Shown: positions 18,187 to 37,596 of the stretch, piece after piece
Layout of the letters: each line of letters opens with the position of its first letter
Numbering within the stretch: position 1 is the stretch's first letter
Origin: an uncultured Halobacteriales archaeon
Lineage (GTDB): Archaea > Halobacteriota > Halobacteria > Halobacteriales > Haloarculaceae
NCBI GenBank assembly: GCA_964623735.1
Contig: CAZUVE010000001.1
Span: forward strand, 1-54,274
Reading direction: 5' to 3'
DNA: 54,274 bases
Translations under genes and position numbers: made by a program
Notes under the pieces: generated by a model
The model's input: only the letters and a program-made list of their open reading frames with translations
Told to the model about the DNA's origin: nothing
Database searches by the model: none

Positions 18187-18193
18187 AACACTG

Positions 18194-18675: not shown

Positions 18676-18876
18676 ATATCCACCCGGACGTGATTCGCTC
18701 AACTCCGCCGGTCACAAACTCGGAGTATCGCGGCTGAACTCACTGATCTGGTGTCGTGGCACCTGGCAGCGTCACCTCCGGGTGTATAGGGTCGGTTGTA
18801 AGCCATTTCCGGTACGACCGCACCGCAGTTGTGCAGTTGTATCGGTACACAGGGACAGCAACCCGTACAGTATAGG
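18676..18876 (-). repeat. family-D repeat (18676..18788) plus adjoining B-like unit (18789..18876)
   Basis: Second copy of the D + B-like composite. Confidence 0.8.
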
Positions 18877-18909: not shown

Positions 18910-19149
18910 ATGAGTGACGCAGTAGAAGAGACGGCAGTGGAAACCGCGGAAGAAATCGACACCGATGGTCTCACCCCTGCCGTACTGGCGTCGGTCGGTT
19001 CGGTCGCACTCGCCCTGTATTTCTATTACGTGCGCGGTGACAAACAGCGTGGCCAGTTCGTCGGCTTCTGGCCTGTCACGATACTCGCCCTCGCAACGTA
19101 CTTCAAGCTACAGGAGATAGCGCAGATGCTATCGGAAGGCAGCGAGTAA
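18910..19149 (+). CDS. small membrane protein (79 aa)
   Basis: Acidic N-terminus followed by two helices (VLASVGSVALALYFYY, FWPVTILALATYF). Confidence 0.5.
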   Translation: MSDAVEETAVETAEEIDTDGLTPAVLASVGSVALALYFYYVRGDKQRGQFVGFWPVTILALATYFKLQEIAQMLSEGSE

Positions 19150-19226
19150 TCCTGTCGGCTATAACTATTTGAAGATATTCCCCACCCGGGGTGCCGACAG
19201 TGCTCACGCGCTTATAGCCGACAGTA
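19150..19226 (+). repeat. family-A repeat, directly after the stop codon of 18910..19149
   Basis: TCCTGTCGGCTATAACTATTTGAAGATATTCCCCACCCGGGGTGCCGACAGTGCTCACGCGCTTATAGCCGACAGTA. Confidence 0.8.
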
Positions 19227-19304
19227 CGACAGCCGGGTGTACCACGCGGGGACGCCCGGCGGCGAACGGCTCGCATATAAGTGGGCGCCGGCGTTACCGG
19301 GGGT

Positions 19305-20519: not shown

Positions 20520-21400
20520 CGGGTAGTGCAGCGGCGTCGTCAAGATCCTCACAAACGTCCTCATCGACCTGGTCCGGACTGACCTGCCTACCCGCGACCC
20601 CCCGGCCGCCCAGGGCAGGAGAAACCTTGGCCGGCCTTGTGCGGCCGCGGTTTCCCCGCCGGGAGAGACCTGATCCCCCACTTGGGGATGGACCTGGGGG
20701 GCGGACCTGACGCGCGCGTCAAGCCTGACCTCGGGTCTGCGCGCCCGCGGTGACACCTCGCACGAATCGTAACGTCGGAGGTATCATTCCGGTCTGCAGA
20801 ACGCGAGGATTCCCTACGAGGTGGGGGTGTGGACTTCCTCATCATCGATGAGAGTGCATCGGTGCCGGAACGTGCTTGGACAGAGGAACTCCACCCAACG
20901 CTGTCCGATTCCCAGGGCAAGATGATTGCCATCGGCACACCTAAGAGCCGAAACTGGTTCCATCGCTGGTTCAAACGTGGCCAGTCCACCGATTATACTG
21001 GTCGACGGAGTCCCTGATAGATATTCGCCGGGTCGTGACGCGGCGAATTGTCTCAACCGTTCCGTCGACCAGTATACCCCGAGGTTACGAGCTTCCAGGC
21101 CCCTACATATCAGAATCCGCATATCGCCGACTCGGAGATTGATTCCGCCCGCGACGACATGCCGGACCGTGTATTTGAACAGGAGTATCTGGCGAAGTTC
21201 GTCGATGATGCCAGTGGCGTCTTCCGGAACGTTCGTGAGCGGAATGTCGAGTCGTATACCCTGTCCGTGAGTGCCGCCGAGAGTACTGGTCCCTATTCAA
21301 TCGGTGTCGACTTCGCCCGGGTGGAAGGCACGCTGGATTCGCGTCGGTGGTTAGCTGCGCTATTCGGGTTCAGAGGAGTTCGACACTCTCTCCCCTGAGA
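20520..21400 (+). pseudogene. phage terminase large subunit, multiply frameshifted and truncated
   Basis: The fragments are ALCGRGFPAGR (decayed Walker A), VSFRSAEREDSLRGGGVDFLIIDESASVP (Walker B), MIAIGTPKSRNWFHRWF, then in another frame FQAPTYQNPHI...FEQEYLAKFVDDASGVF...YSIGVDFAR. Confidence 0.65.
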
Positions 21401-21636
21401 ACGCTGCTGACTTCCGATCACGACCCGATCCAACTACGCATTGTCGGCTTCCTGCGTCATTGTCTCACCACTTCAGACAGAATCTCACCCTGCCAGAGAG
21501 AAGTTAGCCTAGAACGGATGAGGATAGGGGGTGTCCGGTCGATTGATTCTCGCACATTCAAGCAACCGTGGGTCGGTGTGCTTGACCTCTGAGAACTCCC
21601 GGGAACAGTGTACCCGGCGATGTTTCGGTTGTGCTC

Positions 21637-21716
21637 ATACTGTCGGTTATAACTACGTGAAGATATTCTGCACCCCGGAGTGCCGACAGTGCTCACGCGC
21701 TTATAGCCGACAGTAT
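21637..21716 (+). repeat. family-A repeat
   Basis: ATACTGTCGGTTATAACTACGTGAAGATATTCTGCACCCCGGAGTGCCGACAGTGCTCACGCGCTTATAGCCGACAGTAT. Confidence 0.85.
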
Positions 21717-22084
21717 CAGTAGTCGCAAGGTTGCGGTGGATTCATTCTACGAATAGCTGAATTAACTGACGTGATATCCGTTGAAATTTACTGCACGGAT
21801 GCGGGTTCTGGATGAGAAAGAGATATTATAGCAGACGGACTGGAAGCGACCTGTTCGAAGTCTGAGAACGCCGTTGAGGTGAAATTGGATATACAATCGG
21901 TCGATAGTCGCATGATGAGAGAAACTATCATAATGCTGGCCAACATGCACAAATATATCACACATAGTATCATGGAAAAGCGTACAGTCAACGTGATATT
22001 GGACACGTCGCTCGCCGAACCACGCTCATCCTCGAATGGTACAAGTACGATCACGTGATACGTGTCAACCGGAGGGACGAATAA

Positions 22085-23041
22085 ATGAGTACACGTAGTG
22101 GGCCACTCGCTTCGACGAGGTCCGCCACCCTAGCTCAGCGCCTGCGGCCAATCTTGGAGACACTGTTCGATTGGCTCACGCTTGAGCCCATCTGGCGGGC
22201 GTACCGCCGTGCGGGGACCAGAGGAGCCGTTGCGGTGGCGGTCGGGCTATGGTTTATCTGGCTGATGATCGTGTCCGTGCCGCTGGCCGTCGTCGGCGGG
22301 TTGCTCGAATTAGCCGGTGTCGTTCAGAGTGCCGGTGATGCCATTGTGGCACCGGTGGTTTTATTGGCAACTGCAATTACATTATACGGCGCGTACAACG
22401 CCTACCGGTTCATCGACGATCGGGGGACGGTGTACGAGTACCGCCAGAATCTCGATACACAGAAGGCCGGCGACTGTTTCGACTATCTAGATTCGGGGGA
22501 TGCCGTCACACGCGGGATTGCCTCGGCGGCCATCGCCGATGCGATGGGACAGATTGACGACGTAGACCCAGTATTGAAACAGGCCGGGTTGGACAAGGAA
22601 GCGGTTGCATTCAAACTGGTCGATCTATTCCATGATGATAACGATGACGTACGGCGCAACGCCAGCGAGGCAGTCGCATACTTATCTCGTGACTACCCGC
22701 TGACCATCGCCCCGTACCGCGACGATGTCTTTGCGGCCATGACCTACCCCGACTCGGTGATTCAGACGAACGCAGCCATCGTCGGGGGAAACATGGCTGC
22801 TATCGAGCCCCGATTGTCTGATGAAGTCGTCGACAATCTCGAGCCGCTCATCGCTGATGAGGACCCAGAGGTCCGGCAGGGGATGGCGATGGCACTAAGC
22901 CTGATTCACACAGACCGGGCCCGGAAGCTGTTAGAACAGCTCGCCAGCGACTCCAACGCCGATGTCCGCAACACGGCGACCGAGGCCCGCGAACAGCAGG
23001 AGCAAGGACGCCCCCTTGACATTGACGTCGAATCCGCATGA
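22085..23041 (+). CDS. membrane-anchored HEAT-repeat protein (paralog 1)
   Basis: Two N-terminal helices (AVAVAVGLWFIWLMIVSVPLAVVGG, VAPVVLLATAITLYGAY). HEAT/PBS-lyase-like repeats follow (DDNDDVRRNASEAVAYLSRDYP, DEDPEVRQGMAMALS, SDSNADVRNTATEA). Confidence 0.75.
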   Translation: MSTRSGPLASTRSATLAQRLRPILETLFDWLTLEPIWRAYRRAGTRGAVAVAVGLWFIWLMIVSVPLAVVGGLLELAGVVQSAGDAIVAPVVLLATAITLYGAYNAYRFIDDRGTVYEYRQNLDTQKAGDCFDYLDSGDAVTRGIASAAIADAMGQIDDVDPVLKQAGLDKEAVAFKLVDLFHDDNDDVRRNASEAVAYLSRDYPLTIAPYRDDVFAAMTYPDSVIQTNAAIVGGNMAAIEPRLSDEVVDNLEPLIADEDPEVRQGMAMALSLIHTDRARKLLEQLASDSNADVRNTATEAREQQEQGRPLDIDVESA

Positions 23042-23122
23042 GGTTGATGTTCAGACATCACACCCAACCAACCGGTCGGTTGCATCGTGCGCTAAGTAGT
23101 TGCGCCGCCACTCAACCCAGTC

Positions 23123-23983
23123 ATGGATGAGCGTATCGCCCGGCTGGCCGCCGTCGAAAGCGACACCGGTCGGGGCCGTGCCACCGACATCCTCATCGAC
23201 ATCGTCAAAGAGGCCCGCGACCAGGTCGGTGTTGCTGGAATCGCAGTGTCAGTTGCGGTGTTGTATTTCGGCTCGTACTTTCTGTTGGCAGCCATGTTCG
23301 GCGTGGCCAGCAGCGTCATCGGCGAGACGGTGGGACTTCTCGCCGGACTGGTTGCACTTGCATACACGAGTTGGGTAGGGTTCACCGCCTACGAGGAATC
23401 GACTGACAGAGAGCGAGCCCGCATCATCCAGTCCCGGCCATCGATCGACACCATCGAGGAAGCGTTCGACCTGCTGACGAGTCCGGACCCGGAGGCTCGT
23501 GAGCACGCGGCCGCATGCGTCCGTGAGGTCACCGCCCTCGGGCCACAGAAGGTGATCTCGATATTGGGCGCCTCTGCAGAGGACGTGGTGTCGTATCTTA
23601 TTCCGCGACTGGATTCCGACCAGGAAGCCGTCCGGGCGAGCATCGCCAGCGCCATCGCGTTCTTCGCTCGTGACTACCCGGCAGCGGTTGTCCCACACCG
23701 GGAGACACTGCTGTCGCGGGTCACTGCCGACGGCATCAGCCCAGAGGTCCGGGGGGAACTCGCGATGACCGTTGGGTACCTCTCGCTGACCCGCGGCGGC
23801 GAGACCGAGACACTCGAGGAGGTCGGATTCGAACTCGCCGATCACTCCACTCCTCAGGTGCGAATCGGGGCCTGCTACATGCTGGCGGGCGCCCAGACCG
23901 ATAGAGCGCGGGAACGGATCCGCAAGATTGCCGAGGACGACCCTGATACGGAGGTGCGAAACCATGCTGAGGAGCTGTACTGA
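23123..23983 (+). CDS. membrane-anchored HEAT-repeat protein (paralog 2)
   Basis: Same architecture as paralog 1, and shares the ARDYP and TDRAR...DDPDTEVRNHA blocks with 22085..23041. Confidence 0.75.
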   Translation: MDERIARLAAVESDTGRGRATDILIDIVKEARDQVGVAGIAVSVAVLYFGSYFLLAAMFGVASSVIGETVGLLAGLVALAYTSWVGFTAYEESTDRERARIIQSRPSIDTIEEAFDLLTSPDPEAREHAAACVREVTALGPQKVISILGASAEDVVSYLIPRLDSDQEAVRASIASAIAFFARDYPAAVVPHRETLLSRVTADGISPEVRGELAMTVGYLSLTRGGETETLEEVGFELADHSTPQVRIGACYMLAGAQTDRARERIRKIAEDDPDTEVRNHAEELY

Positions 23984-24022
23984 CCACACGCAGTGTTCCG
24001 AGAGGCCCGAGGAGGTGACAAA

Positions 24023-25330
24023 ATGAGCACTGCCGGGGAGTTCTCGTCACCGAACGTCGAAGCCAAAGACTACTACGAGCGGCTCGGGGTCCCTGAGGAC
24101 GCCAGCGCTGAGGACGTCGCCAACCACACCAAAAAATACGTCGCGCAATTCAAACCGGAGCTGTCGGACCACGACAACGCCGACGAACGGTGGGATCGGT
24201 TCAACGACGCTCGCCAAACGCTCAACGGGGCCGAGACCAAAGAGGAGTACGACACGTTTCGTGAGCGGTTCGGGCCACAGGATGGGGCCGAGGCGTACGA
24301 GGCCTGGGAGGCCCGTGACAGACCTGGGGACCCGGCGACACTTGACCCTGCCCGCCAACTCGACCGGCCGTCGATCGGTAAAGAGGGTACTGCCACCTCC
24401 GATGAGGAGCCGGCCGAGAGCCAGACATCCAGCAGACAGAGTGATGACCGCCAGCAGCGCCGGTCCCGAGAGCGCACACGGCAGACGTCCGAGGCCGAAC
24501 GCGAGCGCCGCCGCAGAGAGCGCCAGCGGCGTCGTCGCGAAGCCGACATCGACCTCGACTCCTCGAAGGCCCACTCGACCCGTAACGTCGACAGGGACGA
24601 TGAGGAAGACGACGAGGCCACCGAGGAACCGGCCAGCCAGTCGACGGCACGGCAGGTGCTCAGCCACTTCCGGGAGTCCGGCCGGGTCGCGACGCGCGAG
24701 GCCGCGACCGCTCTCGAGGTGCTGGAACTGGCGGTCGTCGGCTACATCATATACGCCCTCATCGTCCAGTTCGGCGCAGCCAGCGTGGCCGACGCGGCCG
24801 GAACCGTCATCGTCCAAGACATCGCGACTGTCGGCGTGGTTCTCGGCGTCGGGTTCGTCCTCGTCAGCCGGTATCTTCAGCGGTTCGGGACTGATCCGGC
24901 CAACCCAGACGGTCGGCCGTCGCCGGGCCGGCAACTTATTCGCGACAGCGACACCCCGACGTGGTTCGTGTACGGCCCGGCAGTCGCTGGTGTACTGTTC
25001 GCCGGTCTGCTCCCGCTGGGCGGGGGCGGTACGACGCTGTTGTTCGTCGGACTGGCAATGCTGTTCACATACGGACGGTACCGGGTGGTGGCCGAACTGG
25101 TACCCACGCCGGACTGGAGCGAGTACGTCGACATCGCCGGTGGAGCCGGCGCCGCAGTACTGTTCATCGCTATCTTTGTGCTGTCGGCGCCCGGCGCAGG
25201 GGTTGAGGCAGATGTCGCGACCTCCGGGCCGGCGGTCGCCATTGTCGTGGTTGCGCTCATAGCCGCCATCGTTGCCATCCCATCGGTCGCTCTCTGGTTG
25301 GGCGCTCGGGAGGAGGCCGAGGCCGCTTGA
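24023..25330 (+). CDS. polytopic membrane protein with N-terminal J-like domain (HPD replaced by KPE)
   Basis: DYYERLGVPEDASAEDV...KKYVAQFKPELSDHDNADERWDRFNDARQTL...EYD aligns with J-domain helices I-IV. An R/E/D-rich linker and about 5 C-terminal helices follow. GGAGGTGA lies 5 nt upstream of ATG 24023. Confidence 0.75.
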   Translation: MSTAGEFSSPNVEAKDYYERLGVPEDASAEDVANHTKKYVAQFKPELSDHDNADERWDRFNDARQTLNGAETKEEYDTFRERFGPQDGAEAYEAWEARDRPGDPATLDPARQLDRPSIGKEGTATSDEEPAESQTSSRQSDDRQQRRSRERTRQTSEAERERRRRERQRRRREADIDLDSSKAHSTRNVDRDDEEDDEATEEPASQSTARQVLSHFRESGRVATREAATALEVLELAVVGYIIYALIVQFGAASVADAAGTVIVQDIATVGVVLGVGFVLVSRYLQRFGTDPANPDGRPSPGRQLIRDSDTPTWFVYGPAVAGVLFAGLLPLGGGGTTLLFVGLAMLFTYGRYRVVAELVPTPDWSEYVDIAGGAGAAVLFIAIFVLSAPGAGVEADVATSGPAVAIVVVALIAAIVAIPSVALWLGAREEAEAA

Positions 25331-25439
25331 GAGTCTGCCCATCCAGAGGACCAGAGACTCTACTGGCACAACAGTTAATCTAACCAATACCGTATGAAAT
25401 AAAAAATGCCGGACCGGAAATCGTCACGGACGAAACGGA

Positions 25440-25790
25440 ACGTGCCTGCAGGGAATCACCCAACTCGAGGCCTCCTACGACGAAGGGCTAGCCGACGCCA
25501 TCGTCGCTGGGGCGACACAGGAGATCCTCATGCGGCCGGGGGACAACGAATCACTCGAGCATATCCAGCAGGCGATCGGCTCTACTATCATCGAACATGA
25601 AGAGGAAGCCCCGGGGTTCGGTCAGCGCAACGTCAAACAGGAGGAACAGGACTACCTTTCGGATCGCGAGATCCGTCAGTTCCAGACCGGTGAGGCAATC
25701 GTCCGATCGCCGGACGGGTTCGCTCACGGCCGAGTCAAGCCCTGGGAGCATCTCTCCAGCCGCGAGAAAGCCAAACTCACCGGTGACTGA
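25440..25790 (+). pseudogene. C-terminal remnant of a TraD/VirD4-like (type IV coupling protein) gene
   Basis: LQGITQLEASYDEGLADAIVAGATQEILMRPGDNESLEHIQQAIG...DYLSDREIRQFQTGEAIVRSPDG matches the conserved C-terminal blocks of coupling ATPases. No N-terminal ATPase part is present. Confidence 0.55.
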
Positions 25791-25862
25791 CCATCGCATG
25801 ACAGACACTCATCGTGGGCCGACACACCGACACCGGACTGAGAACCACCATCAGCAACACCA

Positions 25863-27224
25863 ATGACATCGGGTACCGACGACCCGGACGACGACGGACC
25901 GAGCAACAATCAATCGGACCGCGCCTCAGAGGACCAGCCCGAGGTTGACCGAGCCGATAGCGCCGAGACAGAGGGGGCGACCGATTCCGATGCCGAGGCG
26001 GCGGACGCTCTGGACGACATCGACGGTCCTCCGGAGTCCAAGACGACAGCCGCAGAACAGGCAGGCTCAGCCGATGATCACCCGACCGACGCGGCCGAGC
26101 AGACGCCCGCCGAGGCGGATATGACAGAGGACATGAGAGAGGCCGAGGCTGCCGAGGAGCCGGCCGCCGAGGCCGACACCGACAGCACGAGCGACGCCGA
26201 AGCCACGGACCCCGAATCTGAGTCTGAGCCCAGCGCTGACTCCGAGGTCACAGCGGTCGACAGTCAGGACACCGAGAGCGGGTCGGGCGAGAAGACCAGC
26301 GCGAGCGATGACGACGCCTCCTCAGTCGATGCTGACGCTGCTGAGGAGGGCGACGGAAAAGAGGAGCCGGCCACAGAGGCCGATACCGACGACGAGGGAA
26401 CCGGCGCCGACCACCGGTCCGAGACGGCGAAGACCGAGGAGCCGGATGCTGCCGATGACGGCGGTGACGACACGATGGCCGGTCGTGACCCGGCGGATCT
26501 AACGCCGGACGAGGTGGAGGTCACTCGTCCCGACGAGTTCGAGTTCAGGTACCTCCCCAAAGACCGCCTCCCTCCGGATCTCCAGTACACCCCGGAGTTC
26601 GATCCCGACTGGGTGTACCCATCCGGAACAAAAGACGGTGGCACGCAGGACGACGTCCCAGTCCAAGGCCTCGAGACCGGCGTGTTGGCAACCGAGGATA
26701 CCCTCGAAGCGATCGTTGAGGCCGTCCTCGAGGCGCTCGAACTGTATCACGACGCTGTCGGAGAGTATCCACGCCACCGCATCGTCGACTCCGCGGCCAC
26801 GTTCCGCGACCTGAACGACGGGAGCGTCGGGCTTGCAGTCGTCTTCCAGCCTCGGCCGGACGACTACGACGGCCTCACAGACCATATGACTGCGCTGACA
26901 GCGGGTGATTCCGGAGCCGTCGACGGGAACTACGACCGAGCCCGCCGCCTCGTACAGTACCTCGTCGGATCGCTCACACACCGTGAACTGGCGGCGCTGC
27001 CGGGCGCAGAGGATGTGGAACTGGAGGCGGTCACCGACTGGGAATCGCCACGACGGGTCGGCACCACCCCCATCGTCGAGCGATACGGCCCGTTGGCTGC
27101 AGAGGAGGTGTACGACCCGACAGCGGGACCGGTCGATATCTCCACCGATGGGGTCGCCAGCGTGACGGAGACCAATATTTCGCCGACGTATCTCGATATC
27201 AACCATGTGGAGGAACTGTTCTGA
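25863..27224 (+). CDS. protein with ~200-aa extremely acidic low-complexity N-terminus and a ~250-aa globular C-terminal domain of unknown family
   Basis: 453-aa ORF. The D/E/A/T-rich region spans about 25863..26470. The C-terminal part has normal composition, and I recognised no motifs in it. Confidence 0.65.
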   Translation: MTSGTDDPDDDGPSNNQSDRASEDQPEVDRADSAETEGATDSDAEAADALDDIDGPPESKTTAAEQAGSADDHPTDAAEQTPAEADMTEDMREAEAAEEPAAEADTDSTSDAEATDPESESEPSADSEVTAVDSQDTESGSGEKTSASDDDASSVDADAAEEGDGKEEPATEADTDDEGTGADHRSETAKTEEPDAADDGGDDTMAGRDPADLTPDEVEVTRPDEFEFRYLPKDRLPPDLQYTPEFDPDWVYPSGTKDGGTQDDVPVQGLETGVLATEDTLEAIVEAVLEALELYHDAVGEYPRHRIVDSAATFRDLNDGSVGLAVVFQPRPDDYDGLTDHMTALTAGDSGAVDGNYDRARRLVQYLVGSLTHRELAALPGAEDVELEAVTDWESPRRVGTTPIVERYGPLAAEEVYDPTAGPVDISTDGVASVTETNISPTYLDINHVEELF

Positions 27225-27305
27225 TCCGCCCCGCCGGACGTCACCACCTGAGGGTCGCCGTCCGGACCCGTGGCAGCGGTCGCCAGCAGCATCGGCACAG
27301 GAACT

Positions 27306-28058
27306 ATGTCTGTCGCCACGGTGGTCCGACCCATGACTGACGACGGCGAGCGGTTCGTCCGGCTCAGCAACCGGGCCAGGGACGGCGAACCGGTCGACGA
27401 AGGGGACATCCGAGCTGTGTTTGACGCTGTCTTAACGGAAGATATGGGGGCCGCTAGAGCGCTGCAGACCATCGCCGAAAACGATCCCGACCGGTTGGCG
27501 GCGTACACCGACGACATCCAGGCGGCGTTCGAGGCGTGTTCGGACGGCACCGTCCGAAGCAATCTGTATACGGTGCTCAAAGAGGTCAGCGCTGTCCGGC
27601 CGACCCTCCCGTTCGAGGTGGCCGACGAACTAGTCAGAACAATCCGTCAGGGCGACCCGCTGCTGGCCGCCGAGGCGATTGCAGCGCTGACGGCGTCGGT
27701 CAAGGCAGGCCAGACCCTCCCGGAGGAGTTCGTCCAAGAGGTGTTCTACCGAGTGGGGCGGTCACCGAACGACTACGTGATGTCCGTCGGCGGGGAGTTC
27801 CTTCGGACGGTCGTCGAAGCCGGTGGTGACAACGCGGTCCCAGCATTCGAGGCGTTCGGCGTCCTCCTCGCGGAAGACCAGTCCGATATGACGATCGTGC
27901 TGGGGCAGGTGCTCGTGGACCTGCTGTTGGAGTCGCCCGAGGCAGTGCCAGCAGACGCCGACACGGACGTGGTGCGGGAGGCACTGGCTCAGCGGCGTGA
28001 GGAAACCGGACTCCCGGACGACGAACTGACGACGGCACTCGAGACGCTCGAGGCGTGA
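27306..28058 (+). CDS. soluble all-helical HEAT/ARM-like repeat protein
   Basis: AENDPDRLAAYTDDIQAAF...DGTVRSNLYTVLKEV...GDPLLAAEAIAALTASV helical-repeat periodicity. The stop overlaps the next start (GTGA at 28055-28058). The start could instead be GTG 27270. Confidence 0.6.
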   Translation: MSVATVVRPMTDDGERFVRLSNRARDGEPVDEGDIRAVFDAVLTEDMGAARALQTIAENDPDRLAAYTDDIQAAFEACSDGTVRSNLYTVLKEVSAVRPTLPFEVADELVRTIRQGDPLLAAEAIAALTASVKAGQTLPEEFVQEVFYRVGRSPNDYVMSVGGEFLRTVVEAGGDNAVPAFEAFGVLLAEDQSDMTIVLGQVLVDLLLESPEAVPADADTDVVREALAQRREETGLPDDELTTALETLEA

Positions 28059-28612
28059 CCACCTGTAGCTGTGGCACCGAACAGAAGGAAGTCGACCGCG
28101 AGAGCACGGTGCGACAGTACGTCGACCGGTTCAGTTTCTCGGACCTCTCGCTGAACAAGAAGACCGAGGTAAAGAACCCGTTCCGTCCGAGCGCGCTCTA
28201 CGAACTGGCTACAGCGCCGAATGCCCGGGCGGACATCGAGGGTCCCAGCCTCGAAATAGAGCGCTCCGAGGACACCTTCTGCCCGAACTTCGCCGAGCAT
28301 CAGGAGGCGTACGACCGACTCGTCGCCCAGGCGGAACTGATCGAGGCCGCGACCCAGAATGTACCCGCCGCGGAGGTCGAGACCGCAGTCGACGTCGAGA
28401 TGGTCCGCTCGAAGATCGAGCACCTCCCCTCGCAGGTGCCCAACCTCTCAGAGGCAGAGCTCGAACAGCTCCAAGACGAGCTGACCGCTATGCAGGCGTC
28501 GCTGTCGGGGCGGCTCGAACAACTCGAGGGCAGCCAACCGGCGACGCTCCGGGAGTCGCTCGGCGGGTCTAACCGAGCCCAGCGACTGATACTGTCGGCT
28601 ATAACTTCGTGA
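28055..28612 (+). CDS. module-1 ORF of the interrupted gene (terminates in MITE-derived ILSAITS*)
   Basis: TTCSCGTEQKEVDRESTVRQY...EDTFCPNFAEHQEAYDRLV...VDVEMVRSKIEHLPSQV...LTAMQASL...NRAQRL, followed by MITE sequence. Confidence 0.6.
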   Translation: MTTCSCGTEQKEVDRESTVRQYVDRFSFSDLSLNKKTEVKNPFRPSALYELATAPNARADIEGPSLEIERSEDTFCPNFAEHQEAYDRLVAQAELIEAATQNVPAAEVETAVDVEMVRSKIEHLPSQVPNLSEAELEQLQDELTAMQASLSGRLEQLEGSQPATLRESLGGSNRAQRLILSAITS

Positions 28613-28668
28613 AGATATTCGCCACCCCGGGGTGCCGACAGTGCTCACGCGCTTATAGCCGACAGTAT
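28589..28668 (+). mobile_element. family-A MITE-like insertion inside the coding sequence
   Basis: AT-ACTGTCGGCTATAACTTCGTGAAGATATTCGCCACCCCGGGGTGCCGACAGTGCTCACGCGCTTATAGCCGACAGT-AT. 28589..28666 is 78 nt (26 codons) with one in-frame TGA at 28610. Confidence 0.85.
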
Positions 28669-29452
28669 GAACAATCTGCAAGAGCAGACACAACGGATCC
28701 TGGACAACCATATCGCCGAGGAGATCGATCTCCGCCAGCAACAGGCCCGGCAGGACGCTCCCGCCAGTCCAGCGGAAGACACCGCACCGGATGGTTCGAA
28801 AGAACAGGTCGACGAGCAACCGACGGCGTCGCCGGCAGAACCGCCGCCGTGTGACACGTGTGGGCGGGAGGAGGTCCGCGTCGAGCGCCAGACCACGGTC
28901 CGACAGGTCCAGTCGGATCTGGAGTTCCGAAAGCTCAGTTTCGCAGGGTCGGTCACCCCCGGACTGTTCGACAACGAGGGGTCGCTTGACCCGAGTCTGG
29001 ATGGCGGCCCGAGCGTCGAGACGACCGCGACACTCAAGGGCAACGAGGACACGTTCTGCGGGAACTTCGCGGGTGACGAAGACGCCTACGAGGCACTCGT
29101 CCACGATATAAAGGCGACCGACAGGCTCGCCGACCGATACGGGCCGGGGGAGCATCTCGAGGACAACATCGACATCGAGATGCTCCGGTCGAAGGTCGAG
29201 CATCTCCGGACGCAGGTGCGAGACCTCTCGACCGAGAAGCTGACTACGCTCAAAGAAGAACTCACAGCGATGCAGGAGTCAGTGGCCGCCCGGGTCGGGG
29301 ACCTCCGGACCAATCAGCGGTGGGCGAAGCTCCGTGACGACCTCGGGGTCTCGTCGCGCATCCAGCGGCTCCGAGACCTGCAGACCCAGGCCCAGAAGTT
29401 CGTGGACAACCACATCACCACTGAACTCATACTGTCGGCTATAACTACGTGA
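28667..29452 (+). CDS. module-2 ORF of the interrupted gene
   Basis: The ATG lies at the MITE/flank junction. Sequence is PPCDTCGREEVRVERQTTVRQV...EDTFCGNFAGDEDAYEALV...IDIEMLRSKVEHLRTQV...LTAMQESV...SRIQRL...NHITTEL, followed by MITE-derived ILSAITT*. Confidence 0.6.
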   Translation: MNNLQEQTQRILDNHIAEEIDLRQQQARQDAPASPAEDTAPDGSKEQVDEQPTASPAEPPPCDTCGREEVRVERQTTVRQVQSDLEFRKLSFAGSVTPGLFDNEGSLDPSLDGGPSVETTATLKGNEDTFCGNFAGDEDAYEALVHDIKATDRLADRYGPGEHLEDNIDIEMLRSKVEHLRTQVRDLSTEKLTTLKEELTAMQESVAARVGDLRTNQRWAKLRDDLGVSSRIQRLRDLQTQAQKFVDNHITTELILSAITT

Positions 29453-29508
29453 AGATATTCCCCAGTCCGGGGTGTCGATACTGCTCACGCGCTTATAGCC
29501 GACAGTAT
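29429..29508 (+). mobile_element. family-A MITE-like insertion inside the coding sequence
   Basis: AT-ACTGTCGGCTATAACTACGTGAAGATATTCCCCAGTCCGGGGTGTCGATACTGCTCACGCGCTTATAGCCGACAGT-AT, with an in-frame TGA at 29450. Confidence 0.85.
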
Positions 29509-29698
29509 CAGCGAGCGCCAGCAGCAGGCACAGCGAGCCCCCGGCGATCAACGACCCGGCCAGGGCGGCACCGACCCCGAGACTAGCCCCACGGCAGTTC
29601 CCGATGAGACCGAACCGGGCCAGCAGGCCCAAGCCAGTCCGGACGCGACCGGGAAAACGGACCAGTCGCCGACCGACTGCGAGCGCTGCGAGGAGGAG

Positions 29699-30805
29699 AT
29701 GGCCCGCGTCCGCCGCGAGGGGCGTGTCCGGCAGTTCGCCGAAGAGATGGAGCTTCGAGAACTCAACGTCGGGGTCTCGGTGGATATCGTCACCCAATCG
29801 CCCACGCCGAAGGCGAACCCGAAGTTCGAGCGCCGGCCCGATCGGTTTTGCAAAAACTTCGACGGCGACGAGAATGCGCTGGATGCACTCAAGCATGACG
29901 TCCAGCGGGTCACCACCGTTGCTCGAAACAACGCAGGCGGGGAATTCGTCGAAGACGTCGTCGACGTCGAGATGGTCCGGTCGAAGCTGGAGACGTTGCC
30001 GGAGTCCGTCGAAGGGCTCTCCGAGCAGAATCTGAGAGACCTCCGAGGATCACTCGCCGAAATGCGCGACCGGCTGGCCGAGCGGATACAGGACCTCCGA
30101 GACAGTCAGCGACGGAAACTGGAGCAGTTACGGGAGAAGCTAAACCTCTCCTTGCGGCTCGAACGTCTCGAGAACCTGAAAGAGCAGGCCGTCGAGGTCA
30201 TCGACCAGCACCTCGATCCCGAACTGGACCGTCGCCAACAGCCGGGTACCAACTCCGACGACGATCCATCGAGCAGTCCGAGCAGCGGTGGGCCAGAGAC
30301 CGGACCCGACAGCAGGCCCAGTTCCGGCTCCGGTACTGAGTCGGGCTCAGACGGTGGCTCGGGTACCGGAAGCAGGAGTGGTAACGATGGGGCCAACGGT
30401 GGCACTGGGGCTACCGGGAGCGATGGAACTAGCGGCGCCAGCGGATCGAGCGGGAGCAGCGACAGTAGCGGTAGCGCCACGACTGACGATGGCACAGGCG
30501 CGGACGGAACGGACAGCGGGGGGACCGGCGAGGATACCGAGCCCGACGCCGATGAGAGCGGTGACGGCTGGGGGACCGGTGAGCAGGACGGCACCCCCGA
30601 CGGTGCGGACTCCGAGCCCGACCGTGACGTCGATGACGAACCCGGCAACGACCGGTCTGAAAAGGAAGAACGAGACCGACGAGGCGAACCCGACGAAGAG
30701 GGTCCCGACGAGGACGAGGACGAGAACGAGCGCGAAGCCGAAGAACCTCATCAGGACGACGAACCCGAGGCGGACACCGAACCAGATCACGGCCCGATGT
30801 TATAA
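29699..30805 (+). CDS. module-3 ORF plus long G/S/D/E-rich tail (first ATG lies after the module's CxxC)
   Basis: The frame is open from 29453 (…ISERQQQ…TDCERCEEEMARVRREGRVRQF…), but no ATG/GTG/TTG precedes 29699. Downstream are RFCKNFDGDENALDAL, VDVEMVRSKLETLPESV and LAEMRDRL. Confidence 0.55.
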   Translation: MARVRREGRVRQFAEEMELRELNVGVSVDIVTQSPTPKANPKFERRPDRFCKNFDGDENALDALKHDVQRVTTVARNNAGGEFVEDVVDVEMVRSKLETLPESVEGLSEQNLRDLRGSLAEMRDRLAERIQDLRDSQRRKLEQLREKLNLSLRLERLENLKEQAVEVIDQHLDPELDRRQQPGTNSDDDPSSSPSSGGPETGPDSRPSSGSGTESGSDGGSGTGSRSGNDGANGGTGATGSDGTSGASGSSGSSDSSGSATTDDGTGADGTDSGGTGEDTEPDADESGDGWGTGEQDGTPDGADSEPDRDVDDEPGNDRSEKEERDRRGEPDEEGPDEDEDENEREAEEPHQDDEPEADTEPDHGPML

Positions 30806-30963
30806 GCAGTCGTATGCTCCTGCCGACGAGAAGCGCCGGGAGTCCGTCACTATGACGCGTCGTTGTTCCCGCCGCCGGTCCGTCACCACCGACTGTGGAT
30901 GCCACACTCGGAGGTGGCCAGAGCCGCTACGACGACACAACAGCGTGGTCGTTCCGATACGGG

Positions 30964-32511
30964 TCAGGCGTCCGGCGGGAGTTGTGCATCGGGGTCGCTG
31001 CCCTCCAGTGCGGACTCGATCTCCGCGGTGACCTCTATCCCGCTCAACATGTCCTCGCCATACACCGCTAGAGTGCCGTCGTTGTTGACCGTGAACTCGA
31101 CGGCAAGCGACCCCTGTCCGGGCTCGCGAGGGTCGATCCCCTCCAAAGTGGCCTGGCCGAGGAACTCGTTGTCAGGGGCCTTGTCTGACTCACCCTGGTA
31201 CACTTCGATGGCGACGGTCGTCTGGTTCGGGTCCGCGACGCTGTAGCCCTCCTGTCGCTCGGTGGTCGGCAGTTGAGTGTCGCGTTCGACGATAGGGTCG
31301 AACCGGTCGCCGGGCTGGACCTTGACCCCGATCGACTGCGGGAGAACGTCGATCAGCACCAGGCCCGCCTCCTCGGTCGATTCACCGCTCGGTAGCGCCG
31401 CCTCATCGGCTTCGTCGTCGAGCACGGCCGCCTGGATGGCCGCGCCCATCGCGACCGCGTGGTCGGGACTAATCTCCTTGGAGGGCTCCATCCCGAAGTA
31501 ATCGGTAACCAGTTCTTCGACCTGTGGCATCCGCGTCGACCCCCCGATGAGCAGTACCTTGTCGATGTCCTCGACCGCGTAGTCCGTCCGGTCGAAGATG
31601 TCGTCCATCGGATCGGTGGTTCGGTCAAGGAGGTCCGCCGTCATGTCCTCGAACTGGGCGCGGGTGACCTCCTCGTCGAGGTTGTACGACTGCTCGGGCA
31701 GGACGAACGGCACCGTGAGATTCACCGACTGCTGCTCTGAGAGCTTGTGCTTGGCCTCCTGAGCGGCTTCGAAGATCCGGCCCCGCTGGTCGGCGTAGTC
31801 GGGGTCATCGCTGATGTCGACGCCGGTATCCTCCTCGATGCTGTCGTATGCGAACTGTACGATCGCCTCGGTCCAGTTCGATCCACCGAGTTCGTTGTCG
31901 CCGTCGGTCGCGACCGTCTCGATATAGTTGAACTCGTACTCGGCCTCGACCAGCGTTGCGTCGAACGTGCCCCCGCCGAGGTCGTACACGAACACTATCT
32001 CGTTGTTCACCTCGCCCAGTTGCTGCTCGCGGAATCCGTAGGCCAGCACTGCCGCGCTGGGTTCGGGAAGCAACTTCTCTACGTTCATGCCGGCAAGTTC
32101 GCCGGCCTCTCGAGTGGCGGTCCGTTCCCGATCGGTGAAATACGCCGGCACGGTGATGACCGCGTTGGTAACGTCGGTGCCCAGTCGGTCCTCGGCGTCG
32201 CCCACTAGCTTCTGGAGAATAAGCCCGGACACCTCTTGTGGAGTAAATTCCTCGTCCCCCATCATGACGGTCTCGTTGGTCCCCATGAGCTTCTTGACCT
32301 CCCGAACCGTCCAGTCGGGTTTCATCATCATGTTGTTTACCGCACTCTCTCCCACCAGCGACTCACCTTCCTCGGTCAGATGCACGACCGAGGGGGTGAT
32401 GCCTTTGCCATCGCTGTTATCGATGACGGTCGGCTCCCCGTCGGTGATGTGCGCCATCGCACTGCGAGTCGTCCCAAGGTCTATGCCAATCGTACGCTCG
32501 CCGTTTGACAT
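30964..32511 (-). CDS. Hsp70-family ATPase, lid-less (paralog A)
   Basis: MSNGERTIGIDLGTTRS, VITVPAYFTDRERTATREAGELAGM, EPSAAVLAYG, YDLGGGTFDAT and LIGGSTRMPQV, with a beta-sandwich SBD (IDVLPQSIGV...). The protein ends about 60 aa after SBD-beta, so there is no helical lid and no EEVD. Start trimmed to ATG 32511. Confidence 0.9.
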   Translation of the reverse strand: MSNGERTIGIDLGTTRSAMAHITDGEPTVIDNSDGKGITPSVVHLTEEGESLVGESAVNNMMMKPDWTVREVKKLMGTNETVMMGDEEFTPQEVSGLILQKLVGDAEDRLGTDVTNAVITVPAYFTDRERTATREAGELAGMNVEKLLPEPSAAVLAYGFREQQLGEVNNEIVFVYDLGGGTFDATLVEAEYEFNYIETVATDGDNELGGSNWTEAIVQFAYDSIEEDTGVDISDDPDYADQRGRIFEAAQEAKHKLSEQQSVNLTVPFVLPEQSYNLDEEVTRAQFEDMTADLLDRTTDPMDDIFDRTDYAVEDIDKVLLIGGSTRMPQVEELVTDYFGMEPSKEISPDHAVAMGAAIQAAVLDDEADEAALPSGESTEEAGLVLIDVLPQSIGVKVQPGDRFDPIVERDTQLPTTERQEGYSVADPNQTTVAIEVYQGESDKAPDNEFLGQATLEGIDPREPGQGSLAVEFTVNNDGTLAVYGEDMLSGIEVTAEIESALEGSDPDAQLPPDA

Positions 32512-32593
32512 CAAGATAATACACAGCGGCAGCCACATTAAATCTTGACACCGCGCTGACGTTGCCGAACATCTTATTTTCGTCGCCTTCACA
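32512..32593. promoter_or_regulatory. 82-bp divergent intergenic region of the two Hsp70 genes
   Basis: Relatively AT-rich (TTAAAT, CTTATTTT as TATA-box candidates). A 7-bp inverted repeat TCAAGAT(32511-17)/ATCTTGA(32542-48) is present. Confidence 0.4.
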
Positions 32594-34180
32594 ATGGCAG
32601 ATATGTCGCCAGCGGACGGCACGACCGTCGGCATTGATTTGGGAACGACCAGAACGGCGGTTGCTCATGTGACGAGGGGCACACCGACGTTGCTCGCGAA
32701 TGCCGGGGGGTACAACCTGACGCCCTCTGTCGTGCACGTCCCCCGTGACGGGCCAGCACTCGTCGGCCGTGAAGCCAGCGACCGGCTGCTGATGGAGCCA
32801 GAGCGGACCATCGCGGAGGTCAAACGCCATATGGGCGATGAGACCGAACTGAGTCTTGGACAGTCGACACGCCGCCCTGAGGAACTATCGGCGCTAATAC
32901 TCGAGAAGGTCGTCAACGATGCCGCCGACCGGACCGACACCACTGTCGAGACGGCAGTCATCACCGTACCGGCGTACTTTACCGGACGGCAGCGGACGGC
33001 GACCCGTAACGCGGGTGAGATTGCGGGTCTTCACGTCGATCAGTTGCTACCCGAGCCCAGCGCGGCGGTGCTGGCCTACGGGTACGAACAGCAGAAGCTC
33101 GGGGAGGTTACCGACGAGACGCTGCTGGTGTACGACCTCGGCGGAGGAACGTTCGACGCGACGCTCGTCGAGGCCGAATACGAGCATAACTACATCGAGA
33201 CGGTGTTCACCGAGGGGGACAGCGGGCTCGGCGGGCACGACTGGACGGCCGAGATCGAGGCGTGGGTGGCCGACGAGATCCGTTCCGACACCGGGATCGA
33301 CGTCACCAGTGGGTCGGCCTACGCCGACCAGCGCAACCGCATCCGGTCGGCTGCTCGTGAGGCCAAACACGAACTCGTCGACCAGCAAAAGACCGTGGTA
33401 AATATTCCGTACGTCGTCCCAGAGGAAAACTACCACTTCGAACGCACGATTGATCGGGCACAGTTCCAAGCGATGACCGAGCACCTGCTCGAACAAACCC
33501 GCAAGACCATCGAGACCGTGTTCCACCAGACGGACTACACCACCGCCGACGTCGACACGGTCCTGCTGGTCGGAGGCGCCTCCCGGATGCCACAAGTGGA
33601 GTCGATGCTCCGGTCGTACTTCGGGATGGCACCCTCCAGAGAGGTCCACCCCGACCACGCCGTCGCGATGGGCGCAGCCGTCCAGGCAGCTGTCCTTGAC
33701 GACAGCGTGACCGGCGTCGGCGAGATGCTGTCACATGCCGAGGACGACGGCGCCGGCGCGCCGAGCGGCATCGTCCTCGTGGACGTGCTCCCCCAGACGC
33801 TCGGGGTGGAATTGGACAACGGGCAATTCTCACCGGTCATCGAGCAGGGCGCTCAACTGCCGACGACTGTCCGCAAGGAAAATTTCCAGACGGTACACCC
33901 TGACCAGACCGCGGTCAAGTGGCCGATCCGCCAAGGCGAATCGCCACAGGCCGTCGACAACGACCTCCTCGGGACGGTCTGGATCCGTGACATCCCCCCG
34001 CGAGACCCGGACCGCGATAGCATCGCCGTCGAGTTCACCATGACCTCCGACGGCACGTTGCAGGTAGAGGTCGAAGACCTGATCACGGGCAGGCTGGTCG
34101 ACGCGACGATCGAGTCCGGCATCCGACTCTCCGATGCCGAGATCACGGAAATGAGCGCTGACATCCCAGGGGTGGAGTGA
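32594..34180 (+). CDS. Hsp70-family ATPase, lid-less (paralog B)
   Basis: TVGIDLGTTRT, VITVPAYFTGRQRTATRNAGEIAGL, EPSAAVLAYG, YDLGGGTFDAT, LVGGASRMPQV and VDVLPQTLGV. It ends shortly after SBD-beta. Confidence 0.9.
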   Translation: MADMSPADGTTVGIDLGTTRTAVAHVTRGTPTLLANAGGYNLTPSVVHVPRDGPALVGREASDRLLMEPERTIAEVKRHMGDETELSLGQSTRRPEELSALILEKVVNDAADRTDTTVETAVITVPAYFTGRQRTATRNAGEIAGLHVDQLLPEPSAAVLAYGYEQQKLGEVTDETLLVYDLGGGTFDATLVEAEYEHNYIETVFTEGDSGLGGHDWTAEIEAWVADEIRSDTGIDVTSGSAYADQRNRIRSAAREAKHELVDQQKTVVNIPYVVPEENYHFERTIDRAQFQAMTEHLLEQTRKTIETVFHQTDYTTADVDTVLLVGGASRMPQVESMLRSYFGMAPSREVHPDHAVAMGAAVQAAVLDDSVTGVGEMLSHAEDDGAGAPSGIVLVDVLPQTLGVELDNGQFSPVIEQGAQLPTTVRKENFQTVHPDQTAVKWPIRQGESPQAVDNDLLGTVWIRDIPPRDPDRDSIAVEFTMTSDGTLQVEVEDLITGRLVDATIESGIRLSDAEITEMSADIPGVE

Positions 34181-34657: not shown

Positions 34658-34671
34658 AAGGCTGTCTACTG

Positions 34672-34750
34672 ATACTGTCGGCTATAAGCGCGTGAGCACT
34701 GTCGGCACCCCGGGTGGAGAATATCTTCACGTACTTATAGCCGACAGTAT
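34672..34750 (-). repeat. family-A repeat (reverse orientation)
   Basis: ATACTGTCGGCTATAAGCGCGTGAGCACTGTCGGCACCCCGGGTGGAGAATATCTTCACGTACTTATAGCCGACAGTAT. Confidence 0.85.
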
Positions 34751-34888
34751 GAGCAATCACCGAGGACGACGAGCGGTTGCAGTCGTACGACGACTACAGT
34801 CGTGCGACGGCGCTGTTCAACGACCAGCTCGGCACGGAGGACGGCAGCGAGTGGGCGAAACACGCACCCGAGTCAGCAGGAGGACGAG

Positions 34889-35370: not shown

Positions 35371-35449
35371 TAGTGATTGCTGTACCTGTGTACCGGTACG
35401 ACCGTACGCTGTCGTGCGGTGGATCCGGCACTGACTTACAGCAGTTACT
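35371..35449 (-). repeat. family-B repeat, ending at the start codon of the next gene
   Basis: TAGTGATTGCTGTACCTGTGTACCGGTACGACCGTACGCTGTCGTGCGGTGGATCCGGCACTGACTTACAGCAGTTACTA. Confidence 0.8.
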
Positions 35450-35857
35450 ATGACCCCGGCAGTCACGGACTGTCCGGACTGTGGGGGTGGGACGCTCCCG
35501 TTCCCGGTCCCCGCGGAGTACCAGTCGCTGTTGCCCGGCGAGGACCCGGGCGCGGTGCTGTGCCGGCGGTGTCTGTCGCTGTACCCGGACCCGGACCCGC
35601 CCGGGGAGCCCCCGGAGTTCCGGCGCGTCAGCGACGCGTTCCCGACGAACCCGGACGCGGCCGTCCCGATGGCGCTGGCGGTCGGCCTGCTCGACAGTCT
35701 CGCGCTGTACCGCTCGGAGATTGGCGACCTGCTCGCGGCTGCCGAGCGCGCCGGAACCGACCCGCTGCTGGTTCTCGACCGGCTGGCCCGCGACCCGGAA
35801 CTCGATCCCGCAACCGACCTCGCCGGCCGCCGCCACCAGCTCGAACAGCTCCTCTGA
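35450..35857 (+). CDS. conserved hypothetical protein with N-terminal zinc ribbon
   Basis: CPDC...CRRC pairs followed by a helical C-terminal domain. Codon bias is good. Confidence 0.65.
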   Translation: MTPAVTDCPDCGGGTLPFPVPAEYQSLLPGEDPGAVLCRRCLSLYPDPDPPGEPPEFRRVSDAFPTNPDAAVPMALAVGLLDSLALYRSEIGDLLAAAERAGTDPLLVLDRLARDPELDPATDLAGRRHQLEQLL

Positions 35858-35875
35858 TACGGACTGCTGTAAGTC

Positions 35876-36030
35876 ATACTGTCGGCTATACCGACGTGAA
35901 GATATTCCCCACCCGGGGTGCCGACAGTGCTCACGCGCTTATAACCGACAGTATGAGTGGTGTACCTGTGTCCCGGGACGACCGTACGCTGTCGTGCGGT
36001 GGATCCGGCAGTGACTTACAGCCGGCAGCA
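35876..36030. repeat. family-A repeat (35876..35954) followed by family-B repeat (35955..36030); a solitary B terminus (CTGCTGTAAGTCA) precedes at 35863..35875
   Basis: ATACTGTCGGCTATACCGACGTGAAGATATTCCCCACCCGGGGTGCCGACAGTGCTCACGCGCTTATAACCGACAGTAT followed by ...GTACCTGTGTCCCGGGACGACCGTACGCTGTCGTGCGGTGGATCCGGCAGTGACTTACAGCC. Confidence 0.75.
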
Positions 36031-37546: not shown

Positions 37547-37596
37547 CGGTAGACACTTGGCGAGAACGGCGTATGAATGTGTTGACCGGGCTCCGG

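Follow-up and report, generated by a model that had tools for sequence, protein, structure and literature searches.

A haloarchaeal gene cluster of lidless Hsp70s with a membrane J-like protein, two membrane HEAT proteins and an orphan partner

Introduction

What kind of system is encoded by a group of Hsp70-type chaperone genes lying in a region of mobile debris in a haloarchaeal chromosome? The question is raised by contig CAZUVE010000001.1 of an uncultured Halobacteriales archaeon, of which 54,274 nucleotides were analysed (the whole stretch is referred to as the window). Positions 22,085 to 34,180 of the window encode two Hsp70 paralogs, a membrane J-like protein, two membrane-anchored HEAT-repeat proteins, a soluble armadillo-like protein, an acidic protein (protein X in the following) and a modular Cys/coiled-coil protein. 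The original prediction described them as a self-contained eight-gene set carried by a mobile island, with every reading frame intact but that of the modular gene. All eight genes were recovered at the positions reported. The Hsp70-centred gene set is real, conserved and previously unannotated, and it is a variant of the theme in which an Hsp70 is dedicated to its own J protein. We give about even chances to the view that haloarchaea have their own membrane-tethered Hsp70 machine, dedicated to a client and built around protein X, and that the locus is its extended form, carried on mobile DNA and decayed in part.

Results

Two Hsp70 paralogs without a lid

Hsp70A (515 aa; 30964..32511, minus strand) is the paralog most tightly linked to protein X. 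Hsp70B (528 aa; 32594..34180, plus strand) is divergently transcribed and ~52% identical to Hsp70A. Both match Pfam HSP70, with E-values of 1.6e-132 and 1.2e-116, respectively. The absence of a helical lid is indicated by the ends of these matches at profile positions 504 and 513 of 599, and alignment with E. coli DnaK places both termini within helix A of the lid. The two proteins have the features of the Hsp70 superfamily (PF00012), namely an actin-like nucleotide-binding domain with its catalytic residues and a beta-sandwich substrate-binding domain. Residues K70, E171, D194 and T199 (DnaK numbering) and the hydrophobic interdomain linker are retained in Hsp70A, in Hsp70B and in ~70 relatives. 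Of the ATPase motifs listed in the original prediction, the one given as GGSTRMPQ reads GGASRMPQ in Hsp70B. The lack of a lid was also correctly recognized, but the lack of an EEVD tail, reported together with it, carries no information because prokaryotic Hsp70s are not known to have EEVD.

The database search revealed a family of ~70 short haloarchaeal Hsp70s with a uniform length of 507-536 aa, all lacking the lid and sharing the signature LLPEPSAA instead of I(I/V)NEPTAA. Canonical haloarchaeal DnaK is ~635 aa long and ~43% identical to the short proteins. Hsp70A and Hsp70B do not reach the cut-offs of the DnaK equivalogs (443 and 400 bits against 822.55 for TIGR02350; 460 and 419 bits against 648 for NF001413) or that of HscA (357 and 316 bits against 708). 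In a neighbour-joining tree, calculated without bootstrap and including E. coli HscC as the only HscC sequence, the two paralogs form sister clades inside the short haloarchaeal family and apart from the haloarchaeal DnaK clade; HscC is an outgroup on a long branch, and the short Hsp70s are nearer to the DnaK clade. Judged from their sequences, Hsp70A and Hsp70B appear to be active, specialised proteins and not truncated DnaK genes, in agreement with the proposal of a specialised, non-DnaK system whose Hsp70s stand apart from both DnaK and HscC.

No GrpE or canonical DnaK gene was found in the window by tblastn, the former as had been predicted, and no GrpE gene is present in any of the clusters examined. 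Among plasmids (PLSDB), the only matches to Hsp70A were ordinary dnaK products with identities of <=43%. It is noted that one related locus (L026, positions 12275-14179) has a second Hsp70 called at 621 aa with an N-terminal extension of ~100 aa, and that a second short, HPD-containing J-like stretch overlaps the start of this gene on the opposite strand. The arrangement may reflect a mis-called start or a degraded J gene.

A conserved core in three nested architectures

Some 20-odd loci from genomes and hypersaline metagenomes were examined, and the gene set is syntenic in other haloarchaeal loci, as the original prediction required of a genuine system. Three nested architectures are found. 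The minimal triad consists of a short Hsp70, X and a J protein (L015, L016, L026, L027, L035, L037, L039 and L040). Several of these triads lie in ordinary chromosomal contexts, the one in L016 being 4 kb from canonical DnaK/GrpE genes. The five-gene form has the order seen in the window, with the two transmembrane (TM) HEAT proteins TM-HEAT1 and TM-HEAT2 followed by the TM J-like protein, X and Hsp70A (L012 from Haloarcula nitratireducens, and L029-L032). The extended form adds Hsp70B and, variably, a coupling ATPase and a cassette of further genes (window, L001, L002, L017, L024 and L025). Hsp70B occurs in all five of the other extended loci. It is missing from L012 and from L032, where 3.2 kb of sequence follows Hsp70A; the L029-L031 contigs stop too soon past Hsp70A for its presence to be scored.

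Protein X adjoins the A-type short Hsp70 and the J protein in ~20/20 informative loci, and >=12 additional pairs of X and Hsp70 agree in the length of their longest contig. The invariant core is therefore a lidless A-type Hsp70, its own J protein and protein X. More distant clades of short Hsp70s (L013, L018) have a large J-like partner only and no X. The TM-HEAT pair is present in 11 distinct loci (window, L001, L002, L012, L017, L024, L025/L034 and L029-L032), with identities to the window proteins between 37 and 96%. The closest relative of the window copy is L001, from a Halorientalis metagenome-assembled genome. Against this locus, the six retained genes have ratios of nonsynonymous to synonymous substitution (dN/dS) of 0.07-0.20, where X is represented by its C-terminal domain. 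The lowest value belongs to Hsp70A (0.07), followed by TM-HEAT1 and the X C-terminal domain (0.12 each), Hsp70B (0.17), TM-HEAT2 (0.19) and the J-like protein (0.20). The six retained genes are under purifying selection.

The cassette varies between the extended loci. In the window and L002, it consists of the armadillo-like protein and the modular coiled-coil protein. In L024 and L025, a nuclease-like protein of ~430 aa with a metallo-beta-lactamase (MBL) fold is encoded between the coupling ATPase and X (13614-14915 and 17109-18401, respectively). It matches the effector regions of PADLOC LmuA (8.6e-17), Avs1a, PDC-M48B and a reverse transcriptase (RT)-associated MBL system, and has a weak match to Pfam Anti-Pycsar_Apyc1. 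The neighbours of the extended form include an integrase and Orc1/Cdc6 in L017, Orc1/Cdc6 and IS605 OrfB in L025, and provirus debris in the window.

Replacement of HPD in the membrane J-like protein

The gene at 24023..25330 (plus strand) encodes a polytopic membrane protein. Its N-terminal J domain is joined by a charged linker to a C-terminal part in which 5-6 hydrophobic segments are predicted to span the membrane; the TM calls for all membrane proteins of the window come from hydropathy. The J domain scores 31.7 bits against Pfam DnaJ (PF00226; gathering score 27.8) over profile positions 1-63 of 63. The alignments have KPE in place of HPD, so that both the membrane location and the KPE motif recognized in the original prediction were recovered.

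The loss of HPD is not family-wide. The canonical HPD is present in all X-containing loci that lack the TM-HEAT pair (10/10). Among the 11 loci with the pair, none has HPD; KPE is found in 10 (the window and nine others) and MPQ in one (L017). As judged from these alignments, the replacement of HPD coincides with the gain of the two HEAT proteins and appears to be tied to their presence. KPE has remained constant while the remainder of the J-like protein diverged to ~40% identity, which argues that the substitution is selected. In DnaK, R167 contacts the Asp of HPD. No compensating change of this residue alongside KPE was seen, as the A-clade members beside KPE-containing J proteins have K or R at this position (R in P0004 and L012).

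The TM-HEAT pair and the armadillo-like protein

TM-HEAT1 (22085..23041, plus strand) has an N-terminal two-helix membrane hairpin, with hydrophobic segments at approximately residues 44-105, and a C-terminal HEAT-repeat domain (Pfam HEAT_2, 1.6e-12). Its paralog TM-HEAT2 (23123..23983, plus strand; ~26% identity) has the same architecture, with hydrophobic segments at residues 35-80 and a HEAT_2 match of 8.7e-13. TM-HEAT1 orthologs are found in L001, L002, L012, L017, L024, L025 and L029-L032, and TM-HEAT2 adjoins TM-HEAT1 in every case.

The 250-aa product of 27306..28058 (plus strand) has no Pfam match. Its single-sequence AlphaFold2 (AF2) model, with a predicted local distance difference test (pLDDT) score of 75.6, consists of ~14 stacked helices and matches designed armadillo repeats and importin-alpha in Foldseek, consistent with a soluble armadillo/HEAT-like alpha-solenoid. 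The original count of three HEAT/ARM-like proteins, two of them with TM hairpins, is thus confirmed. The gene is found only in the window and L002 and is a lineage-specific accessory. It shares the expected 4-nt overlap (GTGA) with the modular gene downstream.

Protein X and its relation to phospho-Ser/Thr lyases

Protein X (25863..27224, plus strand) comprises an acidic disordered N-terminus (25863-26465) and a conserved C-terminal domain (26466-27224) of 250 aa, which is the most conserved partner of the Hsp70. The N-terminus has a dN/dS of 0.44. Long disordered acidic N-termini are found in X proteins of the extended type and are missing in the minimal chromosomal triads. The C-terminal domain has 53 homologs, all unnamed, and 25 representative clusters among 1.84 billion proteins. 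Protein X was not found in plasmids (PLSDB), viral contigs (IMG/VR) or viral structures (BFVD). Sequence comparison of X with solved structures returned matches at the chance level only, so that structural and profile-profile methods were needed to establish the link described below.

The AF2 model of the domain, built from 26 sequences, has a pLDDT of 77 and a predicted TM-score (pTM) of 0.77. All of the top 20 Foldseek matches are lyase domains or OspF/SpvC (best E-value 1.2e-4, probability 1.0), and they comprise the lyase domains of the class III lanthipeptide synthetases CuvL, ThurKC and PneKC, LxmY, and the phosphothreonine-lyase effectors SpvC and OspF. The target-normalised TM-scores are 0.37-0.5. 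There is no direct match of X to Pfam RamC_N. The two weakest matches of the X profile among the 1.84 billion proteins are, however, RamC_N proteins (2.6e-5 and 8e-5), and hhalign aligns X with these two proteins over ~215 columns at 95-96% probability. One of them in turn aligns onto the 'QGWKIH' region of ThurKC. In phospho-Ser/Thr lyases such as SpvC and VenL, the catalytic residues are a Lys-x-His motif and a general-base Lys. The lyase K-x-H aligns to E70-x-G72 of X, and the base Lys aligns to R105 in the invariant YPRHR motif. Both E-x-G and R105 are invariant or nearly so across the 26 X sequences. X retains P-x-Q-G, H104 and R206-Y207, and the motifs common to X and RamC_N are P-x-Q-G, H-[KR]-[FI]-I and R-Y-[GA]-P. 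From the model, protein X is predicted to have the phospho-Ser/Thr-lyase (RamC_N/OspF/SpvC) fold with the canonical catalytic set replaced, and it would therefore be a pseudoenzyme or perform a new chemistry.

The other of these two RamC_N proteins is a stand-alone protein of L022 (1-9029), encoded directly after a VirB4-like AAA_10 gene and the gene of a 2145-aa TrbL_3 protein; ADP-ribosylglycohydrolase, AAA, helicase and primase-polymerase genes follow. L022 thus appears to stem from an archaeon of a hypersaline lake and to be part of a conjugative element resembling a type IV secretion system (T4SS).

Decay of the coupling ATPase and the modular gene

The window copy is partly decayed because it has only a remnant of the coupling ATPase and a split modular gene, and is thus less intact and self-contained than first described. 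The remnant (25446..25790, plus strand), detected by tblastn with the L002 protein, is a pseudogene fragment in which the last 114 aa of a type IV coupling ATPase of the TrwB/VirD4 type are left. It corresponds to residues 443-556 of the 556-aa L002 ATPase at 85% identity and includes an 86-aa open reading frame (25530-25790). Full-length coupling proteins, with a P-loop ATPase and an N-terminal TM region, are encoded in L002, L024 and L025 and not in the window. The L002 protein has a TrwB_AAD_bind match of 9.7e-47 and two N-terminal TM segments, and the coupling ATPase also matches PADLOC mad8 (3.9e-14). Its gene is directly upstream of X in L002 and <=3 genes from X in L024 and L025. In L001, an internal deletion has left a remnant of the ATPase gene, and the armadillo-like and modular genes have been lost with a 160-nt scar remaining.

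The modular gene (28055..30805, plus strand) is disrupted, being a pseudogene or three fragments. Each of its three modules has CxC/CxxC, a TFCxNF motif and a coiled coil, the internal repeats being ~780-790 nt apart, and the gene ends in an acidic Gly/Ser-rich tail. Two copies of the same palindromic miniature inverted-repeat transposable element (MITE) are inserted, at 28586..28670 (85 nt) and 29425..29512, instead of the single one reported earlier. They preserve the frame and introduce stop codons. As judged from the junction sequence, clean excision of the first MITE would restore ...RAQRL-NNLQEQ..., and removal of both restores the frame seen in L002, where the ortholog is intact and encodes 823 aa. 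Among 5.8 billion proteins, the modular protein matched none but itself, and it is a lineage-specific orphan characterised by its repeat structure. Of the modular and the acidic protein, which had both been suggested as client or scaffold, the acidic one is the conserved partner of the Hsp70s, through its lyase-fold domain, and the modular one is not. The six core genes of the window copy are still under purifying selection, but its coupling-ATPase and coiled-coil genes are dead.

Setting of the cluster in the window

The cluster is located in a haloarchaeal chromosomal stretch between the gene of A-type ATPase subunit D, which ends at 20243, and the aRF1 gene (~36302-37550). Within this stretch, the GC content drops to 0.55 at 20-23 kb. 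At the left edge of the island, a fragment of a terminase large subunit (21048-21398; phrog_2, 1.4e-8, profile positions 422-490 of 807) is left over from a tailed provirus. The ~85-nt MITE, of a perfect-palindrome type with the form ATACTGTCGGCTATAA...CCCGGGG...TTATAGCCGACAGTAT, is present in six copies (19149-19229, 21632-21722, 28586-28670, 29425-29512, 34668-34753 and 35874-35958). An intact DUF6276 gene (35450-35857; 2.5e-47) lies between two of them. The Hsp70 cluster is therefore not the sole intact coding content of the island region, as had been assumed.

On either side of the island region lies a further pair of direct repeats. The first (18000-18143 and 18687-18829; ~145 nt, 91-96% identity) is separated by 687 nt, and the other (35374-35442 and 35954-36022; 69 nt, 93% identity) by 580 nt. 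Both may be other small mobile elements or duplicated intergenic regions. A GC-rich hairpin of ~50 nt (…GAGTGCCTCGGGGCTTGTCCCCGAGGTACTTCAC…) was also observed at 2086-2139 in the window, at 12814-12854 in L001 and at 16150-16202 in L017. It is near the Hsp70 clusters in L001 and L017 but distant from the cluster in the window, and is probably a dispersed repeat or a terminator-like element. The Rfam scan of the window found nothing but one tRNA.

Discussion

Comparison with known systems

None of the characterised operons matches the cluster, in literature that was covered in part and in PADLOC-DB v2, where the six core proteins gave weak generic HEAT matches only. The partner genes are thus not assigned to a described operon, as the original prediction had anticipated. 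The E. coli hscC locus is the best functional analogue. It has a reduced-lid Hsp70 beside its own membrane-anchored J proteins, DjlB and DjlC, and also encodes small proteins without a known function and alpha-solenoid proteins, which are of the Sel1 type instead of HEAT; the HPD of DjlC deviates as well, to HPE. However, HscC (556 aa) keeps a short lid, while the window Hsp70s end in helix A, and it is a distant outgroup in the tree, not a close relative. The partners are not homologous, being DUF1266 and Sel1 proteins in one case and the lyase-fold X and TM-HEAT proteins in the other, and two Hsp70 paralogs with a coupling ATPase are found in the archaeal system, unlike the hscC locus. It is noted that in E. 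coli K-12 (L019, 676000-683400; ybeQ-ybeR-djlB-ybeT-ybeU-djlC-hscC) a three-gene unit of Sel1-repeat, DUF1266 and membrane J genes is tandemly duplicated beside hscC (ybeQ-ybeR-djlB and ybeT-ybeU-djlC), a grammar that parallels the archaeal locus.

In the HscA/HscB-IscU system, the genes of the Hsp70 and its J protein likewise go together with that of a single partner to which they are dedicated. The LPPxVQY segment of X recalls the LPPVK recognition motif of IscU, a resemblance only. HscA has a full lid and HscB has HPD, in contrast to the window proteins; X is unrelated to IscU and no Fe-S assembly genes are present. Phospho-Ser/Thr lyases (RamC_N; OspF/SpvC/HopAI1) have the fold predicted for X, and the X profile reaches RamC_N proteins, but X has E-x-G and Arg for K-x-H and the base Lys. 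X also lacks the kinase and cyclase domains of lanthipeptide synthetases, and a gene for a precursor peptide is likewise absent.

A J-like domain without HPD is found in Pam16/Tim16 of the mitochondrial import motor, and Sec63 and Pam18 are membrane J proteins. A membrane-anchored J or J-like domain positions Hsp70 at the membrane, and such a domain can regulate or tether even when HPD has been lost. The archaeal cluster differs from these cases in that no HPD-bearing J partner is encoded alongside, that the Hsp70 is on the cytoplasmic (cis) side, and that only the J fold is homologous.

Hsp70 has also been predicted in conflict systems, mainly actinobacterial, that centre either on DO-GTPases with tubulin or on GAP1-N2, the latter accompanied by GrpE and by fusions of FNIII and DnaJ (Kaur et al. 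2020, PMC7159879). These resemble the present cluster in placing Hsp70 in multi-gene systems dependent on nucleoside triphosphates, with repeat or coiled-coil 'superstructure-forming' proteins and variable effectors. They differ in that the cluster proteins have no GTPase, tubulin, GAP1-N2 or GrpE domain.

A proposed mechanism

We propose that Hsp70A and Hsp70B, both competent for ATP, would be held on the cytoplasmic side of the membrane by the J-like domain and the two HEAT domains; the predicted TM anchors make such a recruitment plausible. The HEAT proteins, Hsp70B acting like an Hsp110, or both could replace the stimulation by HPD and the exchange of the GrpE type. Precedents are HspBP1/Fes1, which are armadillo-repeat proteins, for the HEAT proteins and Hsp110 for the second Hsp70. 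Without a lid, the Hsp70s may bind and release extended segments quickly, and they may act on X as a single dedicated partner, as HscA/HscB do on IscU. The candidate contacts on X are its conserved LPPxVQYTPEFD segment and its acidic tail. X itself would then be a peptide-binding adaptor or a regulated output instead of a lyase. Where the locus is intact, the output of X could be linked to the coupling ATPase and to the variable cassette, and this would suggest a role in inter-element conflict or transfer.

Several observations weigh against the proposed machine. The client status of X, the exchange or scaffold role of the HEAT proteins and the coupling to the ATPase are all drawn from gene linkage. 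The coupling ATPase is missing in L012, L017 and L029-L032. In the window and L001 it is dead although selection still acts on the remaining genes, so that the core does not require it. The role may be physiological and not one of conflict, since the core triad of L027 is found among PheRS, Pelota and FtsY genes. The DnaJ and GrpE of the host, encoded outside the window, might service Hsp70A and Hsp70B. The fold assignment of X comes from a model with a pLDDT of 77 and modest TM-scores (0.37-0.5), and X may still be an enzyme with a different chemistry because E70, H104 and R105 are invariant in its family.

Alternative explanations

The same genes could instead provide anti-virus or anti-plasmid defence of the abortive-infection type, in which membrane-tethered Hsp70s sense foreign or unfolded proteins and release or activate an output, be it X, the coupling ATPase or a variable effector such as the MBL-fold nuclease or the coiled-coil protein. 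We consider this unlikely, even though the extended form is found in mobile or variable regions (L017 and L025; L012 with helicases, HNH, UDG and DprA; the window with a terminase fragment and MITEs) and a variable cassette is inserted between conserved genes, including the MBL-fold protein that matches PADLOC effector regions in L024 and L025. The mad8 match of the coupling ATPase, the patchy distribution and the different inactivating lesion in each of three close relatives point in the same direction, as do the other Hsp70-containing conflict systems predicted computationally (PMC7159879). However, the core proteins have no PADLOC match beyond weak generic HEAT, and the window copy has no recognisable effector, given a broken modular gene and an X without the catalytic residues of the lyases. 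Neither structural nor sequence searches yielded a viral homolog of X. The mobile location from which a conflict role had been deduced applies to the extended form, which lies beside integrase, Orc1/Cdc6, insertion-sequence or provirus debris; the core triad occurs in housekeeping contexts as well, which weakens a purely defensive reading. A module for substrate delivery in a T4SS or conjugation, with the coupling ATPase recruiting an effector-like X and the Hsp70s and J-like protein serving as membrane secretion chaperones by which X stays competent for translocation, seems to us decidedly unlikely. It would account for the closeness of the ATPase gene to X (next to it on the upstream side in L002, at most three genes away in L024 and L025), for the disordered acidic N-termini being limited to extended-type X, and for the distant RamC_N-type relative of X that in L022 immediately follows VirB4-like and TrbL/VirB6-like genes. 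The same fold occurs in OspF and SpvC, which are secreted effectors according to their PDB descriptions. Yet no channel genes (VirB4, VirB6 etc.) are present within 10 kb in the 11 extended loci, most loci have lost the coupling ATPase or have a dead copy of it although the remainder is under selection, and the minimal triads have no membrane or secretion component.

It is improbable, in our estimate, that X is a co-chaperone, either an exchange factor or a lid provided in trans, and that the set is an alternative general proteostasis system for membrane or high-salt stress. X is strictly linked 1:1 to the lidless A-type Hsp70 and to a J protein, in housekeeping contexts too. This would agree with such a role, and so would the lack of GrpE in any cluster and the loss of catalytic residues from X with its invariant surface motifs kept. 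Other lidless short Hsp70 clades (L013, L018) nevertheless have no X, and the same genomes also encode canonical DnaK and GrpE (L016). An exchange factor with a lyase fold is not known. Negligible weight is left to a chance juxtaposition in a dead mobile island with the Hsp70s as truncated DnaK pseudogenes. The terminase fragment, the six MITEs, the coupling-ATPase remnant and the MITE-broken gene in the island would be expected of it, but the synteny and selection data refute it: the gene order is kept in 11 loci at identities down to 37%, dN/dS is 0.07-0.20 with KPE strictly conserved, and the ~70 short Hsp70s are uniform at 507-536 aa, with a family signature and intact catalytic residues.

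Implications

The dedicated Hsp70/J pairs, such as HscA/HscB and HscC/DjlC, are rare windows on how the Hsp70 cycle is re-purposed. The proposed client-dedicated machine would add to them a natural experiment, in which HPD is present in the simple form and a conserved KPE appears exactly when two membrane HEAT proteins join. The switch from HPD to KPE points to an alternative, non-HPD control of Hsp70. The orphan family X gains a fold and a partner, likely as a pseudoenzyme branch of the OspF/lanthipeptide-lyase superfamily, and Hsp70s are found linked to VirD4-type ATPases on archaeal mobile elements. A more far-reaching form of the proposal, which we regard as unlikely, is an archaeal Hsp70-driven membrane machine for conflict or transfer, in which the J-like and TM-HEAT proteins would dock the Hsp70s and take over the control of their cycle. 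The Hsp70s would gate X, and X in turn would couple to the VirD4-type ATPase and to swappable effectors (an MBL-fold nuclease, or the armadillo-like with the coiled-coil protein). If true, no earlier immune or transfer system of archaea would be centred on a chaperone, and the system would form a new archaeal class; otherwise, the cluster would still be a tractable model in which to study minimal Hsp70 mechanics at high salt.

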